Notes: generated from the letters alone by a model not told the origin. A stretch of DNA of 64,000 nt from Escherichia phage vB_EcoM_PHB13 (MK573636), one strand, 5' to 3'. Numbered from the stretch's first letter, positions 30,897 through 36,089 are shown. A program made the numbers and translations.

Positions 30897-31226
30897 ATGT
30901 GGACTGTAGAACAAATCGTAGATGAAAAAGTAAGTATTATCTCGTGCGGCACTATTGAAGAATGCCTTAAAGCCGCTAATCGTGAATGTATTACGGTTTA
31001 TGAAGCCCGTCGCGGGGATGGTACTGTGTTAACCAGCGACTATCGATATGAACCAAAAATGATTACCTTTCGTTTTTGGGAAAATGGTGTTAATGTTGGG
31101 GTATCTCACTTAAAACGTTTTCGTGATTATTCTGACCGTTATTTCATCACACCGGATAACGGTCAAGAATTTAAGACAGCAATCACAGAAGAAAATGTAA
31201 ACGAAAACTATTTCAAACTGATTTGA
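30897..31226 (+). CDS. hypothetical protein (109 aa)
   Basis: ORF after GGAGGA RBS. Confidence 0.5.
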   Translation: MWTVEQIVDEKVSIISCGTIEECLKAANRECITVYEARRGDGTVLTSDYRYEPKMITFRFWENGVNVGVSHLKRFRDYSDRYFITPDNGQEFKTAITEENVNENYFKLI

Positions 31227-31241
31227 TGGGAGATTTATATT

Positions 31242-31811
31242 ATGATTCAATGTGTATTTGCGATTGGTGACACTAAAATGTCAGATGAAAATTGGGCTTT
31301 TGGTTTTAAAGGCGGTTTACCGTGGGGTCGTCCAATCAAAAAGGACATGGAAAACTTTAAAATGCGCACTATGGGAGATGTTGACCTTGCGGCGGTGGTA
31401 ATGGGACGTAATACCTTTGAAAGTCTCCCTAAAGCACTGGAAGGACGTCTTAATGTGGTTATTAGCACCGATGCCAGTAAGCCGACACCAAAAGCTAAAA
31501 ACGGCGACCAGCCTAATGTGTATACTGGAATTGAATTAAAGGATCTGTTAAAAGTCCTGGAGAAAACGCAAGGTTTGGTAAGCGTTATCGGTGGACCTTC
31601 CCTAATTGAAAAAGCAGTTGACTTTGCGGACCGTATTGTGTTAACGTATGTTCAACGTTCAGGGACCAACGATCCATTGGAATATGATGTTGGAATCTCT
31701 AAGGATATGATTCAGGAATTATTTTTTGACTTTGCAACAAAAGAAGAACATAATTACTTCCTTGATGATTACCTGATCAGCGAACAAATTTTAGAACGTA
31801 AGAAGGCGTAA
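31242..31811 (+). CDS. frd: dihydrofolate reductase
   Basis: ...AFGFKGGLPWGRPIKKDMENFKMRT...VVMGRNTFESLP...VIGGPSL... are DHFR motifs; sits upstream of td as in T4. Confidence 0.8.
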   Translation: MIQCVFAIGDTKMSDENWAFGFKGGLPWGRPIKKDMENFKMRTMGDVDLAAVVMGRNTFESLPKALEGRLNVVISTDASKPTPKAKNGDQPNVYTGIELKDLLKVLEKTQGLVSVIGGPSLIEKAVDFADRIVLTYVQRSGTNDPLEYDVGISKDMIQELFFDFATKEEHNYFLDDYLISEQILERKKA

Positions 31812-31812
31812 C

Positions 31813-31905
31813 ATGAAAATTCTGACAGATTATGAGTGCAAACATTGTGGTGAATCTTTGATGTTTGCTGGTAGTCGGTGCTTACATTGCGGACGGGAAC
31901 AATAA
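31813..31905 (+). CDS. possible 30-aa zinc-ribbon micro-ORF
   Basis: MKILTDYECKHCGESLMFAGSRCLHCGREQ: two CxxC pairs; stop overlaps the next start (TAATG). Confidence 0.3.
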   Translation: MKILTDYECKHCGESLMFAGSRCLHCGREQ

Positions 31906-32174
31906 TGAAAGTCGGTATTATTCAATTATGGACGGCTACCAGTGAAAACTACGCAGTAGCCGTAGATTATTACGGTTTACAATATCTCTATGATGAAGCG
32001 AGCGCATCATGGCTTCCTGTGCAAGAAAATAGCGATATCTCAAGACCTGCAACTGTATTCGACCGTGGCGTTGTCTTTATCGATATTGACGAGACAGTAG
32101 CAAAACTGCGTAAGAAAGCAATCAACAAGAAAAAGGTGATGTGGGATGAAAGAATATTTGAAACTGTTGCGTGA
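31905..32174 (+). CDS. hypothetical protein (89 aa)
   Basis: ORF from ATG 31905 (MKVGIIQLW); overlaps the td start. Confidence 0.5.
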   Translation: MKVGIIQLWTATSENYAVAVDYYGLQYLYDEASASWLPVQENSDISRPATVFDRGVVFIDIDETVAKLRKKAINKKKVMWDERIFETVA

Positions 32175-33366
32175 TGTTCTTGATAATGGCTGGCCTCGTG
32201 AAGACCGCACGGGGGTAGGTACGCTCTCTAAATTCGGCGCAGAGATGCGAATTGATTTAAGCAAGGGTTTCCCATTACTGACCACTAAAAAGATGGCTAC
32301 AGCCTCTGTAATTGGCGAATTGCTATGGTTTATGGAAGGGTCACTTGACCGCCGTCGCTTACAGGAAATTACACGCGGTAAGTTTGACGAAGAAGCCTTT
32401 GACATTTGGCGCGGTAATTGTCTTGATATGAAAGAAAAGAATCCTTTGCGATTCAATGGTTATAATGTTGGCAATATGTATGGTATGGCATGGCGACGCA
32501 AACCGATTCATCCACACGGTGAGATCAAAATTAAGCGCGTTAAGAGCAAATATACACATACATTTAAACACCCGTGGGTAGAAGACTTTACGCCAACCAA
32601 TGAAACAGAAGACCGTTTATGTGCTATCTGGCGTGGTATGATTTATGAAGAGTTTGATTGTATTCTGGTAGCAGACCACTGGAAGACTCAATCTAATTTT
32701 GTTAATGATGCATATTGCTTGTGGGGATTCCAGGAATGGGTAGATAGTGGTTATTTCGATTATCTGCTTGATAGTGATTATCTGGGTGGCGACATTTTAG
32801 CACCGGATACCACGATGTTTGTTAGTATGGACGTAGACACATCAAGCACTAAAGACGATGAAGAATATGTCTATCGCCCGAAGATTTGGGAAGACCAGTT
32901 ACAAAACGTGATTGAACAAATTAAAAACAATCCAACGGATCGCCGGATCATTATTGACTCATGGAACGTACAAGGAACACATAATGCTGTATTAGGTGTA
33001 TGTCATCCTTTCGTGCAATTCTATGTCAATGAAGGTAAACTGTCTTGTATGTGGTTTCAGCGAAGCGTAGACAGCTTTTTGGGCTTGCCCTTTAACGTCG
33101 CCAGCTATGCGCTGTTAACTCACATCATAGCGAAAATGTGTGATCTTGAGGTAGGAGAACTGATTTTCTCTGGTGGAGATACTCACATTTACAAAAACCA
33201 CTTTAATCAAGTTATGGAACAGTTAAGCCGTGTTCCGTTTGATAAACCAACAATTGAGTTGCCGGAATTTAAATCTTTAGATGAGATATTGACAAAGACT
33301 CCGAAAGACTTTAAAATTCACAACTATCAAAGCCATCCAGCGATCCCCGCTCAAATGGCAGTATAA
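32146..33366 (+). CDS. td: thymidylate synthase with ~125-aa internal insertion (406 aa)
   Basis: N-terminal MKEYLKLLRDVLDNG...DRTGVGT and C-terminal RRIIIDSWNV...VCHPFVQFYV...FQRSVDSFLGLPFNVASYALLTH...GDTHIYKNH...HPAIPAQMAV match T4/E. coli TS; an extra block follows YGMAWR. Confidence 0.85.
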   Translation: MKEYLKLLRDVLDNGWPREDRTGVGTLSKFGAEMRIDLSKGFPLLTTKKMATASVIGELLWFMEGSLDRRRLQEITRGKFDEEAFDIWRGNCLDMKEKNPLRFNGYNVGNMYGMAWRRKPIHPHGEIKIKRVKSKYTHTFKHPWVEDFTPTNETEDRLCAIWRGMIYEEFDCILVADHWKTQSNFVNDAYCLWGFQEWVDSGYFDYLLDSDYLGGDILAPDTTMFVSMDVDTSSTKDDEEYVYRPKIWEDQLQNVIEQIKNNPTDRRIIIDSWNVQGTHNAVLGVCHPFVQFYVNEGKLSCMWFQRSVDSFLGLPFNVASYALLTHIIAKMCDLEVGELIFSGGDTHIYKNHFNQVMEQLSRVPFDKPTIELPEFKSLDEILTKTPKDFKIHNYQSHPAIPAQMAV

Positions 33367-33372
33367 ACAAAG

Positions 33373-33388
33373 GGGGGCGAAAGCCCCC
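33373..33388 (+). other. GNRA-tetraloop hairpin between td and nrdA
   Basis: GGGGGC-GAAA-GCCCCC with no T-run after it. Confidence 0.5.
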
Positions 33389-33436
33389 AATATGGAGGAT
33401 AAAACTTGTTCCTGCTAAAATATGAAGTGAGGTAAT

Positions 33437-35680
33437 ATGATTAAAAATGTTGTTAAGTCTTCCGGTCTGACTGTTCCGTTTGAAAAAGAAAAAGTAATGA
33501 AAATTCTGGAAGCGGCAGCCGAAGGTCATAACGTTGATCCATATGAATTGTTTGATATGGTTGAACCACTTCTGACAGAAGGTATGTCTACCAATGATAT
33601 CCAGAAAGTATTGATTAAGGTCGCCGCAGATAACATTACTGTAGAAACGCCTGATTATCAATATGTAGCAAGTAACCTTGCAATGTTCGCTCTTCGTAAA
33701 TCAGTATACGGTCAATTCCAACCGATTGATTTTTATAGCCATATTGAGCGTAATATTGCAACCGGAAAATATGATCGTGAAATTCTGCAAAAGTATTCCC
33801 GTGAAGAAGTGGAATATCTGGAGAAATTCATCGACCATAAACTTGATTTTAAAATGACCTATGCTGGTGCGATGCAGTTAAAAGAGAAATATCTTGTTCA
33901 GGATCGCAGCACTAAGAAAATCATTGAAACACCGCAATTTGCGTATATGCTGATCGGTATGTGCTTGCATCAAGAAGAGACAGAAAATCGACTTGAACAT
34001 GTGATTGATTTTTATAATGCTGTTGCGAATAAGCAAATCTCTCTGCCTACTCCGATTATGGCAGGTGTGCGTACCCCAACACGCCAATTTAGTTCGTGTG
34101 TGGTGATTGAAAGTGATGACTCATTGCAGGGCATCAACGAAACAGCAAATGCAATCATCAAGTATATTAGCAAGCGTGCTGGTATCGGTATCAACGCTGG
34201 CATGATTCGCGCGGAAGGATCTAAGATCGGGCATGGTGAAGTTCGTCATACTGGCGTTATCCCATTCTGGAAACATTTTCAGACTGCCGTTAAGTCATGC
34301 TCACAAGGCGGTATTCGTGGCGGGGCGGCGACTCTCTATTACCCAATGTGGCATTTAGAGTTTGAAAGTCTTATTGTGTTGAAGAACAATAAGGGGGTGG
34401 AAGATAACCGCATTCGTCATCTTGATTACGGCGTACAGATTAATAACCTGATGGTAGAGCGATTCCTTAAACGGGATTACATTACTCTGTTTAGTCCAGA
34501 TGTTGCAGGTGGCTTGTTGTGGGATCTGTACTTCCGAGATGAGGAAGGTTTCCGCCAGCTTTACGAAAAACTGGAAAAAGATCCGAGTGTTCGTAAAACT
34601 CGTGTTAAAGCCGAAGACCTGTTTTTAGCGGTGGCAATTGAACGTTTTAACACTGGTCGAATCTATCCAGCGTTCACAGACAACATGAACAATCACGGGG
34701 CGTTTATTCGTAATGTAGCACCGATTAAACAATCCAACCTGTGTTGTGAAATTGCTCTGCCGACAAAACCGATGGGTCGTGATGATTCAGAGATCAGTCT
34801 ATGCACTTTGGCAGCATATGTTTTAGGAAACTTTGATATCGAAAATATGGAAGAAGTAGAACGCATTGCTATGGTTATGGTGCGTGCACTTGACAACCTG
34901 TTAGATTATCAGGATTATCCTGTAGAACAAGCTCTGACAGCCAAAAAACGTCGCTCTCTGGGTGTTGGCGTGACTAACTTTGCATCGTATCTCGCGGATA
35001 ATTTCTTCACATATGAAGACGCTAACGAGTTTACGCATAAAACGTTTGAACGCTTGCAATATGCTCTGATTAAGGCTAGTGTGCAACTAGCAAAAGAGAA
35101 GGGTACTTGCGAACTGATGCACGAAACACGTTATGGTCGCGGTGAACTGCCTATCGACTGGTACAAAAAGACAGTAGATGAACTGGTTGATCCGGTGTAT
35201 GAGATGGATTGGGAAGAACTGCGCGAAGACCTGAAAAAATATGGCATTCGTAACAGTACGCTTTCGGCTCTGATGCCTTGTGAGTCGTCTTCTCAGGTAT
35301 CTAACAGCACAAACGGTATTGAACCGCCTCGCGGGATTGTATCGGTTAAAGGATCAAAGGAAGGACAATTTAATCAGGTTATTCCGAACGTAGAGAATAA
35401 TGCTGATGTTATTGACCTGCTTTGGACACTGATCAAGAAAGGTAACAAGCCTTATCTGACACTGGCAGCGATTATGCAGAAGTTTGTAGATCAGGCGATT
35501 AGTTCCAATACATCCTATGATCCAAGCACTTATAAGACTGGTAAAGTCGATATTGCTGATGTGTTAGATGATATGTTGTTCGCTCAACATTACGGTCTGA
35601 AAACCCTGTATTATGCGAACGTTCGCGACGGTGCAGATGGTACGGAAGACGCTAGCGAGTGCTCATCTTGCAAGCTGTAA
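33437..35680 (+). CDS. nrdA: ribonucleotide reductase large subunit
   Basis: 747-aa ORF with N-terminal ATP-cone region and class I RNR features (…NLCCEIALP…, C-terminal CxxC); size matches T4 NrdA (754 aa). Confidence 0.9.
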   Translation: MIKNVVKSSGLTVPFEKEKVMKILEAAAEGHNVDPYELFDMVEPLLTEGMSTNDIQKVLIKVAADNITVETPDYQYVASNLAMFALRKSVYGQFQPIDFYSHIERNIATGKYDREILQKYSREEVEYLEKFIDHKLDFKMTYAGAMQLKEKYLVQDRSTKKIIETPQFAYMLIGMCLHQEETENRLEHVIDFYNAVANKQISLPTPIMAGVRTPTRQFSSCVVIESDDSLQGINETANAIIKYISKRAGIGINAGMIRAEGSKIGHGEVRHTGVIPFWKHFQTAVKSCSQGGIRGGAATLYYPMWHLEFESLIVLKNNKGVEDNRIRHLDYGVQINNLMVERFLKRDYITLFSPDVAGGLLWDLYFRDEEGFRQLYEKLEKDPSVRKTRVKAEDLFLAVAIERFNTGRIYPAFTDNMNNHGAFIRNVAPIKQSNLCCEIALPTKPMGRDDSEISLCTLAAYVLGNFDIENMEEVERIAMVMVRALDNLLDYQDYPVEQALTAKKRRSLGVGVTNFASYLADNFFTYEDANEFTHKTFERLQYALIKASVQLAKEKGTCELMHETRYGRGELPIDWYKKTVDELVDPVYEMDWEELREDLKKYGIRNSTLSALMPCESSSQVSNSTNGIEPPRGIVSVKGSKEGQFNQVIPNVENNADVIDLLWTLIKKGNKPYLTLAAIMQKFVDQAISSNTSYDPSTYKTGKVDIADVLDDMLFAQHYGLKTLYYANVRDGADGTEDASECSSCKL

Positions 35681-35688
35681 AATAAGTG

Positions 35689-35717
35689 TTGACGCGGGGA
35701 GAAATCCCCGCTATAAT
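35689..35717 (+). promoter_or_regulatory. early promoter with stem-loop in the spacer (PeSL-like)
   Basis: TTGACG 35689-35694, stem GCGGGGA-GAAA-TCCCCGC in the spacer, TATAAT 35712-35717. Confidence 0.6.
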
Positions 35718-35748
35718 ACAACCATCAAAAACAAGTGAGGATTTTATT

Positions 35749-35916
35749 ATGACCAAATTAAAATGTGTTGCTGTAGATTTTGAGCTAGCTGATAGCTTTG
35801 TTGTCGGTGATGTATATGATGCTCGACATGATGGGACTTGCTACTACGTTGAGGATGAATACGGCGTAGAATGGGCTATTCTTCCTGATGATAAATGTTT
35901 TGAGGTTGTCGGATAA
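35749..35916 (+). CDS. hypothetical protein (55 aa)
   Basis: ATG 35749 (MTKLKCVAVDF) after GTGAGGA RBS. Confidence 0.5.
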   Translation: MTKLKCVAVDFELADSFVVGDVYDARHDGTCYYVEDEYGVEWAILPDDKCFEVVG

Positions 35917-36089
35917 TGGCTACTGTATGGTTATTGATTGCAATCAGCAATTCAATGTATAATTACGGAAATATGTCAAGCATTGAGTTTGCAACAAAGC
36001 AGGATTGCGTTAAAGCTCGCGAGGTTATCCGCGAAGACAATAAACGCTTTATGAATCTGTACTGTGTTGAAAAGCAGAAGGTGAACTAA
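35916..36089 (+). CDS. small protein (57 aa), tandem paralogue A
   Basis: MATVWLLIAISNSMYNYG...SIEFATKQDC...CVEKQ; TAATG overlap with neighbours; not in the ORF track (below 60 aa). Confidence 0.5.
   Translation: MATVWLLIAISNSMYNYGNMSSIEFATKQDCVKAREVIREDNKRFMNLYCVEKQKVN

Follow-up and report, generated by a model that had tools for sequence, protein, structure and literature searches.

To our knowledge, homing endonuclease genes (HEGs) are thought to persist in essential genes only by way of self-splicing introns or inteins, or otherwise to lie between genes. HEG inteins (LAGLIDADG, ICP1 NrdA) and intron HEGs (I-TevI, in td of phage T4) place a selfish endonuclease near conserved motifs of nucleotide-metabolism enzymes. 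Here, we analyzed the td gene, which encodes thymidylate synthase (TS), in a window of 64,000 nucleotides (nt) from Escherichia phage vB_EcoM_PHB13 (MK573636), the window being the whole stretch of DNA under analysis. The encoded TS contains an in-frame internal insert, which is probably a fixed, decayed, and unspliced remnant of a homing-endonuclease-like protein of the IPA-HNH type, tolerated in a surface loop of the enzyme. Given that the window td protein is 96-98.5% identical to those of phages Phi1, E26, phiS, and RB49, the window derives from a Krischvirus, that is, an RB49/Phi1-like, T4-like coliphage.

The IPA-HNH family of homing-endonuclease-like proteins was defined by Barth et al. 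(2023; PMC10448857) on three genes of phage ICP1, namely gp59, gp115-116, and gp209. Its members combine AP2 with a divergent HNH region that is invisible to the Pfam model HNH_3 and was found by HHsearch only, and their nuclease and homing role was inferred from HHsearch together with their distribution (PMC10448857). As described, IPA-HNH genes are free-standing open reading frames (ORFs) adjoining essential genes, whereas at this locus the module is fused in frame inside an essential gene, and the window copy lacks AP2, the N-terminal module, and the invariant polar residues. Reportedly, the IPA-HNH proteins form one branch of the AP2-HNH HEGs that Magnani et al. (2004) described.

In concept, the nearest precedent is ShiLan, a domain in DNA methylases of mycobacteriophages described by Arsenault, Gosselin, and Gogarten (2025; PMC11855218). 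This domain, too, is read through in frame, has no detectable features of an intein or intron, is polymorphic for presence or absence, and is predicted to protrude from the host enzyme while sparing it. However, the HNH of ShiLan lies in another frame and its in-frame product is a meaningless hairpin (PMC11855218), whereas here the endonuclease-like protein occupies the host frame and is predicted to fold; in addition, the td host is a core metabolic enzyme, and the window copy is degenerate and fixed. A further parallel is mobE of Aeromonas phage Aeh1, where this gene interrupts nrdA (Friedrich et al. 2007, cited in PMC10448857). Reportedly, an HNH HEG of the free-standing type has there entered an essential nucleotide-metabolism gene of a T4-like phage with no splicing element, and the enzyme still functions, but nrdA is broken into two reassembling polypeptides, whereas the window td frame is continuous.

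HEG inteins and introns differ from the window insert, which has no splicing apparatus at the protein or RNA level. Although I-TevI resides in the same host gene, the T4 td intron site is not the loop after YGxQWR that holds the window insert; we take it to lie roughly 65 codons downstream. Surface additions to TS are likewise tolerated without loss of function in the 50-amino acid (aa) small-domain insert of Lactobacillus casei TS and in the eukaryotic insert 1 of human TS, but these are short or helical elaborations unrelated to mobile-element proteins, and in L. casei TS the insert precedes YGxQWR instead of following it (PDB 1lca residues 162-316 align to query 250-406). We found no description of the RB49-like td insert, or of TS with IPA-HNH modules, in a literature search whose coverage was incomplete, and a prior mention is possible.

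The inserted domain of the td protein

The td ORF starts with ATG on the + strand and encodes 406 aa, compared with 264 aa for E. coli ThyA and 286 aa for T4 TS (1tis_A). PF00303 (Thymidylat_synt) matches residues 2-406 over all 266 profile positions (E 1.7e-84, 283.6 bits, cut-off 24.3), TIGR03284 matches with 283 bits (cut-off 108), and the protein has the TS fold. Aligned with ThyA or T4 TS, it breaks into query 1-82, corresponding to ThyA 1-82, and query 250-406, corresponding to ThyA 110-264 (163.6 bits). The catalytic and substrate-binding residues checked in E. coli numbering (R21, E58, W80, Y94, R126, R127, C146, H147, Q165, R166, S167, D169, N177, H207, and Y209) are intact in 15 of 15 cases: the N-terminal core retains R21, E58, W88, and Y112, and the C-terminal core retains R266, R267, C286, H287, Q305, R306, S307, D309, N317, H347, and Y349. 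The host protein is a bona fide ThyA; its TS part is intact and presumably active in the conversion of dUMP to dTMP.

In a three-way alignment with T4 and E. coli TS, the extra block follows YGMAWR (aa 112-117) and precedes DQLQNV (from aa 250); in ThyA numbering it lies between R99 and D110, where the native loop has 10 residues in E. coli and 5 in T4. Depending on how many native loop residues are counted, the insert is about 122-131 aa long. An x(I/V)K(I)KR motif is kept at the N-junction in all insert-bearing TS, and (Y/H)V(Y/V)RPxI(W/Y) is kept at the C-junction. The AlphaFold2 (AF2) model of the window TS has a mean pLDDT of 93.9, with values of 83-98, about 90, across the insert region, and the insert folded by itself reaches 83. 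In the model, the insert forms a confidently folded domain held off the TS core by a two-stranded stalk. Since the insert also occurs in 58 of the 58 Krischvirus td genes of the phage collection, at 88-100% identity, it is not an alignment artifact. Its GC content is 40.0%, the same as in the C-terminal td core and in the window overall, and therefore gives no sign of recent acquisition.

An earlier note, made from this DNA sequence alone, had described a 406-aa TS with alignable cores, set against 286 aa in T4 and 264 aa in E. coli, and an in-frame block of about 125 aa after YG.QWR. The ORF coordinates and the alignments to both reference enzymes bear this out, with the block placed after YGMAWR. 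Its reading of the block as an inserted domain also stands, given the confident predicted fold and the retention in every Krischvirus td gene; what it missed was the probable origin in a mobile element, since truncated and inactivated.

Relationship to IPA-HNH proteins

No Pfam or NCBIfam model covers the insert module, and a word-indexed protein search with the window insert alone returned no match because the insert is too diverged for shared 5-mers. In a tblastn search of phage genomes, the insert alone matched, outside Krischvirus, the thyA gene of KP13-7, a Klebsiella jumbo phage, at E 2e-4, with 28.9% identity across 95% of the insert, and, weakly, Vibrio phage genes annotated as "HNH endonuclease"; against PHROG 2081, which carries the same label, it scored E 0.038. 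KP13-7 ThyA has 517 aa, and the "HNH endonuclease" of Vibrio phage D181 is in fact a 477-aa TS-fold protein (PF00303, E 1.9e-47). Both carry a larger insert at the same TS loop, and for these inserts the matching PHROGs are 2081, 953, and 374 (all "HNH endonuclease"), with E values from 1e-33 to 1e-20.

Searched against a large protein collection, the KP13-7 insert retrieved phage proteins (P0003-P0010) that are free-standing and about 250 aa long, several of them with AP2 at the C-terminus; PF00847 (AP2) matches free-standing members at 1e-5 to 1e-7. Against phage genomes it matched 1,022 records, including the IPA-HNH founder gp59 of ICP1 (9e-11). A hidden Markov model (HMM) from 69 free-standing non-TS proteins matches window TS residues 173-241 with 23.7 bits (E 1.6e-9 per target), and T4 TS, searched as a control, was negative; as the model was built solely from free-standing proteins, this homology test is not circular. 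The window insert is homologous to the divergent HNH-like module of IPA-HNH genes and, like that module, is undetected by Pfam HNH models. A profile search placed 37,245 representative clusters in the module family at E<=1e-3, and 9,785 at E<=1e-10, nearly all outside TS. Among PDB sequences, the profile of the free-standing family gave a marginal AP2 match to WRI1 (E 0.13) and otherwise noise, and no donor copy of the module was found elsewhere in the 64-kb window.

The relationship extends to overall architecture. In a MAFFT alignment, TS inserts of 245-284 aa are colinear end to end with whole free-standing proteins of about 250 aa, sharing in order an N-terminal beta module (GxYxVxG…VxFxxTG), PSVxGVGYLG, LYxxWxxMxxRCY, VxVCxxWHNFxNF, LDKD…YSPDTCxFxPxxxN, and an AP2-like tail. 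Full-length TS inserts thus show the same block order as IPA-HNH genes, down to the AP2-like tail. The window insert is the same protein minus four blocks, namely the N-terminal module, GVGYLG, the RCY…Y segment, and the tail; AP2 gives no match in the window protein, and the corresponding columns are deleted. The long helix corresponds to the LYxxWxxMxxRCY block minus its RCY end, with the invariant W kept and R, C, and Y lost. At its end lies a deletion scar that corresponds to an NPRKNHxSY segment absent here and present in full-length inserts. At this scar, RB49-type genomes carry four extra residues (D-SEYN-LF vs D-CIL), and because SEYN is retained there, the trimming is still visible as a polymorphism.

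Decay is equally evident in the residues that remain. Of 26 columns conserved in at least 80% of the free-standing proteins, the window insert keeps 9 and full-length TS inserts keep 17-23. The nine are aromatic and aliphatic core residues plus two Asp, whereas every invariant polar residue has been replaced or deleted, namely the Arg and Cys of RCY, the Lys of DKD, and the Tyr of YSP, along with the Cys of TC, the Asn of the final helix, and the Gly of GVGYLG. The window insert has an isoelectric point (pI) of 4.75 and a net charge of -11, whereas the free-standing members have a median pI of 9.1 and a minimum of 7.97, and full-length TS inserts range from 7.7 to 9.6. Judged by its sequence, the window insert is a derivative, and not a functional member, of the IPA-HNH/AP2-HNH family, because AP2, the conserved polar residues, and a sporadic distribution are all absent.

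The wider family shows further arrangements. Many carriers of the module are 430-720 aa long (P0131-P0147), several of them with 2-6 matched stretches, and the long non-TS carriers have no recognizable Pfam domain. Vibrio phage D332 encodes a free-standing 175-aa copy (L015:2504-3028) in which an AP2 region is not apparent from the length; the gene lies between those for DNA primase and DNA polymerase and overlaps the primase stop, a position next to replication genes that is typical of homing-endonuclease-like genes. Its label, "HNH endonuclease | DNA primase", was considered as a sign of a second host gene and rejected, as this is an ordinary free-standing gene between primase and polymerase.

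Insert-bearing synthases, filled and empty sites, and selection

Searches with the full-length protein recovered TS whose inserts occupy this same loop; their lengths are 401-414, 441, 517-524, 546-559, and 613 aa. Insert-bearing TS number at least 20, and 18 of the best 148 module-search representatives are also split at this TS position. Flagging of inserts based on hmmalign misclassified several representatives (e.g. D181 and P0177), and only pairwise identities and manual alignments were used. The cores of two insert-bearing TS share 89% (P0029) and 83% (P0028) identity with insert-less TS, but only about 50% with the window core; insert-bearing TS are therefore not all of one close TS lineage.

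The comparison of these two proteins with their insert-less relatives, P0115 and P0111, exposes a presence/absence polymorphism, which was seen in this lineage only and not in Krischvirus. The empty site reads …YGVQWR-DWRG-VDQLSNLIEG… and the filled site …YGVGWR-TWES-(about 276 aa)-KFYT-DQLSNLIEG…, and about 80 residues downstream of the junction are identical in filled and empty TS. Both alleles lie in syntenic phage contigs with a 98-aa ORF, dihydrofolate reductase, and TS, and the DNA flanks are about 85% identical on each side. One filled/empty pair (L012:1560-3218 vs L014:2376-3218) shares 41 identical nt just 5' of the junction, and the empty-site DNA of the P0115 allele reads ...TACGGCGTACAGTGGAGAGACTGGCGAGGAGTTGACCAACTC... 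This filled/empty pattern is that expected from homing, and full-length copies would have spread by that route. In the same pair, substitutions are concentrated within the ~25 nt ahead of the insert (…GGTGTTGGATGGAGAACATGGGAATCC vs …GGCGTACAGTGGAGAGACTGGCGAGGA); these could be target-site immunity changes or the result of co-conversion.

Other members of the group vary at the same loop. P0108 and other TS of 299-305 aa, close relatives of P0028 and P0029, have about 28 extra residues there (…HWRK-PLNLSAESLVVQDELGDWFSGPIPAADE-IDQV…), which may be remnants eroded still further or loop growth of independent origin. The 477-aa TS-fold protein is found in Vibrio phages D181 (OZ196140.1, L002:2138-3571), D148, and D69; it retains the Cys-His pair, and the D181 core is about 32% identical to the window TS. 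This protein may be a TS or a related pyrimidine-modifying enzyme, and it is annotated as an "HNH endonuclease" because of its embedded module.

Within Krischvirus, the insert is fixed: no insert-less td more than 60% identical to the window td was found in the phage collection. A TS only 52% identical to that of the window (P0016), from a 169-kb T4-like contig with the gene order gp32…frd-td-nrdA-nrdB, also has the short form of the insert, and the decay is therefore older than the Krischvirus radiation. Among nine Krischvirus td genes, the ratio of nonsynonymous to synonymous divergence (dN/dS; Nei-Gojobori) is 0.15-0.6 in the insert, typically about 0.25, and 0.01-0.07 in the core, about 0.03. 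The insert is under relaxed purifying selection, 5-10 times weaker than that on the TS core. The td gene of phage JSE (L009) has a core strongly diverged from other Krischvirus (dS ~0.45-0.68, dN ~0.075), whereas the inserts of JSE and phage kvi hardly differ (dN 0.003); the JSE gene is a mosaic produced by recombination, and a boundary coincides with the insert or lies close to it. In a metagenomic protein (P0012, 88% identical), the divergence pattern after the insert resembles that of JSE td.

The features of the window td gene are collected in the table below. Around td lie gp32, frd, a small ORF, and nrdA. A 98-aa ORF at window positions 31878-32174 (+) overlaps the td start codon region by 29 nt; it is a homologue of RB49ORF236c, annotated as hypothetical in all relatives, and its annotated homologue in phage G2494 is shorter. 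Just past the td stop codon and ahead of nrdA, a G+C-rich hairpin (GGGGGGCGAAAGCCCCC) occupies positions 33372-33388; it is a putative terminator in the annotation of phage G2248 and has no T-run downstream.

Coordinates of the td gene and of the parts of its insert in the window
Feature	Position	Strand	Basis or remark
td gene, 406-aa TS with internal insert	32146..33366	+	stop codon 33364-33366
TS N-terminal core, aa 1-118	32146..32499	+	aligns to ThyA 1-99; YGMAWR motif near end
Insert in the broad sense, aa 119-249: KPIHPHGEIKIK...YVYRPKIWE	32500..32892	+	alignments; a few residues match native loop
Foreign part of insert, ~aa 125-244	32518-32877	+	alignments
Ascending stalk strand, aa 126-130, EIKIK	32521..32535	+	predicted strand E126-130
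Long helix, aa 153-171, ETEDRLCAIWRGMIYEEFD	32602..32658	+	predicted H153-171 and alignment
Deletion scar and insertion/deletion polymorphism	32656..32664	+	Krischvirus alignment
Probable remnant of divergent HNH-like core, aa 173-241: ILVADHWKTQSNFVNDAYCLWGFQEWVD...LLDSDYLGGDILAPDTTMFVS...	32662..32868	+	
Descending stalk strand, aa 241-245, YVYRP, rejoining TS hairpin	32866..32880	+	predicted E241-245, E248-250
TS C-terminal core, aa 250-406, catalytic Cys286-His287	32893..33363	+	aligns to ThyA 110-264

Origin of the insert and its implications

A decayed IPA-HNH-type element, the explanation we hold to be probable, would have arisen as follows. An IPA-HNH-type gene would have integrated in frame into the TS surface beta-hairpin loop between YGxQWR and DQ(L/I), both among the best-conserved motifs of TS, and the inserted protein would have been translated within TS, staying in the mature enzyme as a separate domain on a stalk. 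The element would then have become fixed in the lineage leading to Krischvirus. In-frame deletions would subsequently have taken the beta module at the N-terminus, GVGYLG, RCY, and the AP2 tail, while every invariant polar residue was replaced and the domain turned acidic, leaving the hydrophobic core of the fold. That core was presumably kept because an unfolded or badly excised insert would harm an essential enzyme. Owing to the replacement of the invariant polar residues and the acidity of the domain, the window insert has most likely lost both nuclease activity and DNA binding. Several points weigh against this explanation. Compared directly, the window insert and the free-standing family show modest similarity (23.7 bits; PHROG E 0.038), and the link runs partly via intermediates. 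The nuclease activity and homing of IPA-HNH proteins are themselves inferred, not demonstrated (PMC10448857). The absence of splicing is read from sequence. Finally, a dN/dS of about 0.25 and the occurrence of the short form across T4-like phages with TS 52% identical also fit a new function.

This last point leads to the possibility, which we regard as unlikely, that the insert has the same origin but that its acidic remnant was exapted for a selected function in Krischvirus, such as a contact in the phage deoxynucleoside triphosphate-synthesizing complex, regulation of TS, or nucleic-acid mimicry or repulsion. The purifying selection on the insert would agree with such a role, as would the presence of the short form in all Krischvirus td genes and in T4-like relatives with TS 52-62% identical, the compact confident fold, and the charge shift. 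However, the selection is far weaker than that on the core, the SEYN polymorphism indicates that deletions are ongoing, the retained loops vary widely among short-insert homologues, and nothing in the sequence suggests any particular new activity; a folded domain within an essential enzyme may be constrained merely by the need to avoid misfolding. An elaboration of the TS small domain specific to this lineage, whose likeness to endonucleases is convergent or reflects a TS origin of the free-standing proteins, seems to us highly improbable. The loop is one of known length variation, as the P0108-type TS illustrate, and human TS, we take it, has a 12-residue insert at this same loop. Yet the module clusters lie nearly all outside TS, the inserts run parallel to complete free-standing proteins from the N-terminus to the AP2-like tail, and near-identical TS genes occur with and without the element.

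Removal of the insert by splicing was weighed at the protein and RNA levels. An in-frame insertion beside conserved motifs of a nucleotide-metabolism enzyme is a typical intein habitat, and presence/absence polymorphism among relatives would suit an unconventional intein. However, Pfam scans of the window protein, the insert alone, and the KP13-7 and D181 homologues revealed no Hint or intein family (E<=1 to 10). The junctions (...PHG/EIKIK and ...RPKIWE/DQL) lack a Cys, Ser, or Thr nucleophile at the first or +1 position, the residue after the insert is Asp in all of more than 20 homologues, and none of these has a terminal His-Asn. Furthermore, the insert aligns in its entirety with a free-standing protein that is not an intein, and its ends are predicted to form a beta stalk continuous with the TS hairpin. 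Protein splicing is accordingly hard to credit. Just as implausible is a group I or II intron that is open in frame and removed from the RNA, even though endonuclease ORFs do occur within group I introns of phage genes, T4 td among them. No intron-like RNA was found by Rfam (E<=1) in window positions 31000-36000, which include td, or in the long-insert genes L001 and L002; the translation is homologous to protein over its full length, which leaves no room for a ribozyme core; and selection acts at the protein level. Nor does the insert hold a sizeable ORF in an alternative frame, only ORFs of 41 aa (+) and 70 aa (-) at its 5' end. The insert is almost certainly neither intein nor intron and would remain unspliced in vivo.

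These results agree with the earlier note where it held that intein hallmarks are lacking and that td is uninterrupted at the place where T4 has its group I intron, the alignment to T4 TS running without gaps across that region. The absence of a T4-type td intron is unremarkable, given that group I introns are absent from RB49 and four other T4-like genomes sequenced by Nolan et al. (2006; PMC1524935). The note had also named a known intein or a mobile element with splicing motifs as the outcome contrary to its reading; a mobile element was found, and splicing motifs were not.

If the window insert is such a remnant, the interest lies mainly in the implications of its full-length relatives and in the place of the fossil in easily handled coliphages. 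RB49, Phi1, and JSE are standard laboratory coliphages, and the predictions are directly testable in them. Annotation pipelines mislabel such fusions in both directions, as with the D181 TS recorded as an "HNH endonuclease", and many an "inserted domain of unknown function" in a phage enzyme may be the fossil of an endonuclease. The tolerance of the TS loop for inserts of 120-280 aa is useful for protein engineering.

The size series of the inserts, from 280 through 245, 196, and 163 to 125 aa, offers a natural record of the stepwise neutralization of a selfish domain. Tentatively, and with rather more doubt than conviction, we suggest that the full-length relatives represent a fourth HEG lifestyle beside the intron-borne, intein-borne, and free-standing forms, in which the endonuclease lies in the host frame as a permanent, unspliced surface domain of an essential enzyme that still works and yields a bifunctional TS-endonuclease that would cut the insert-less td of co-infecting phages; Krischvirus td would be the fixed, decayed end-stage of this lifestyle. 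The td locus and its relatives point to another HEG solution to residence in an essential gene, namely an extra domain carried in frame in a permissive surface loop.

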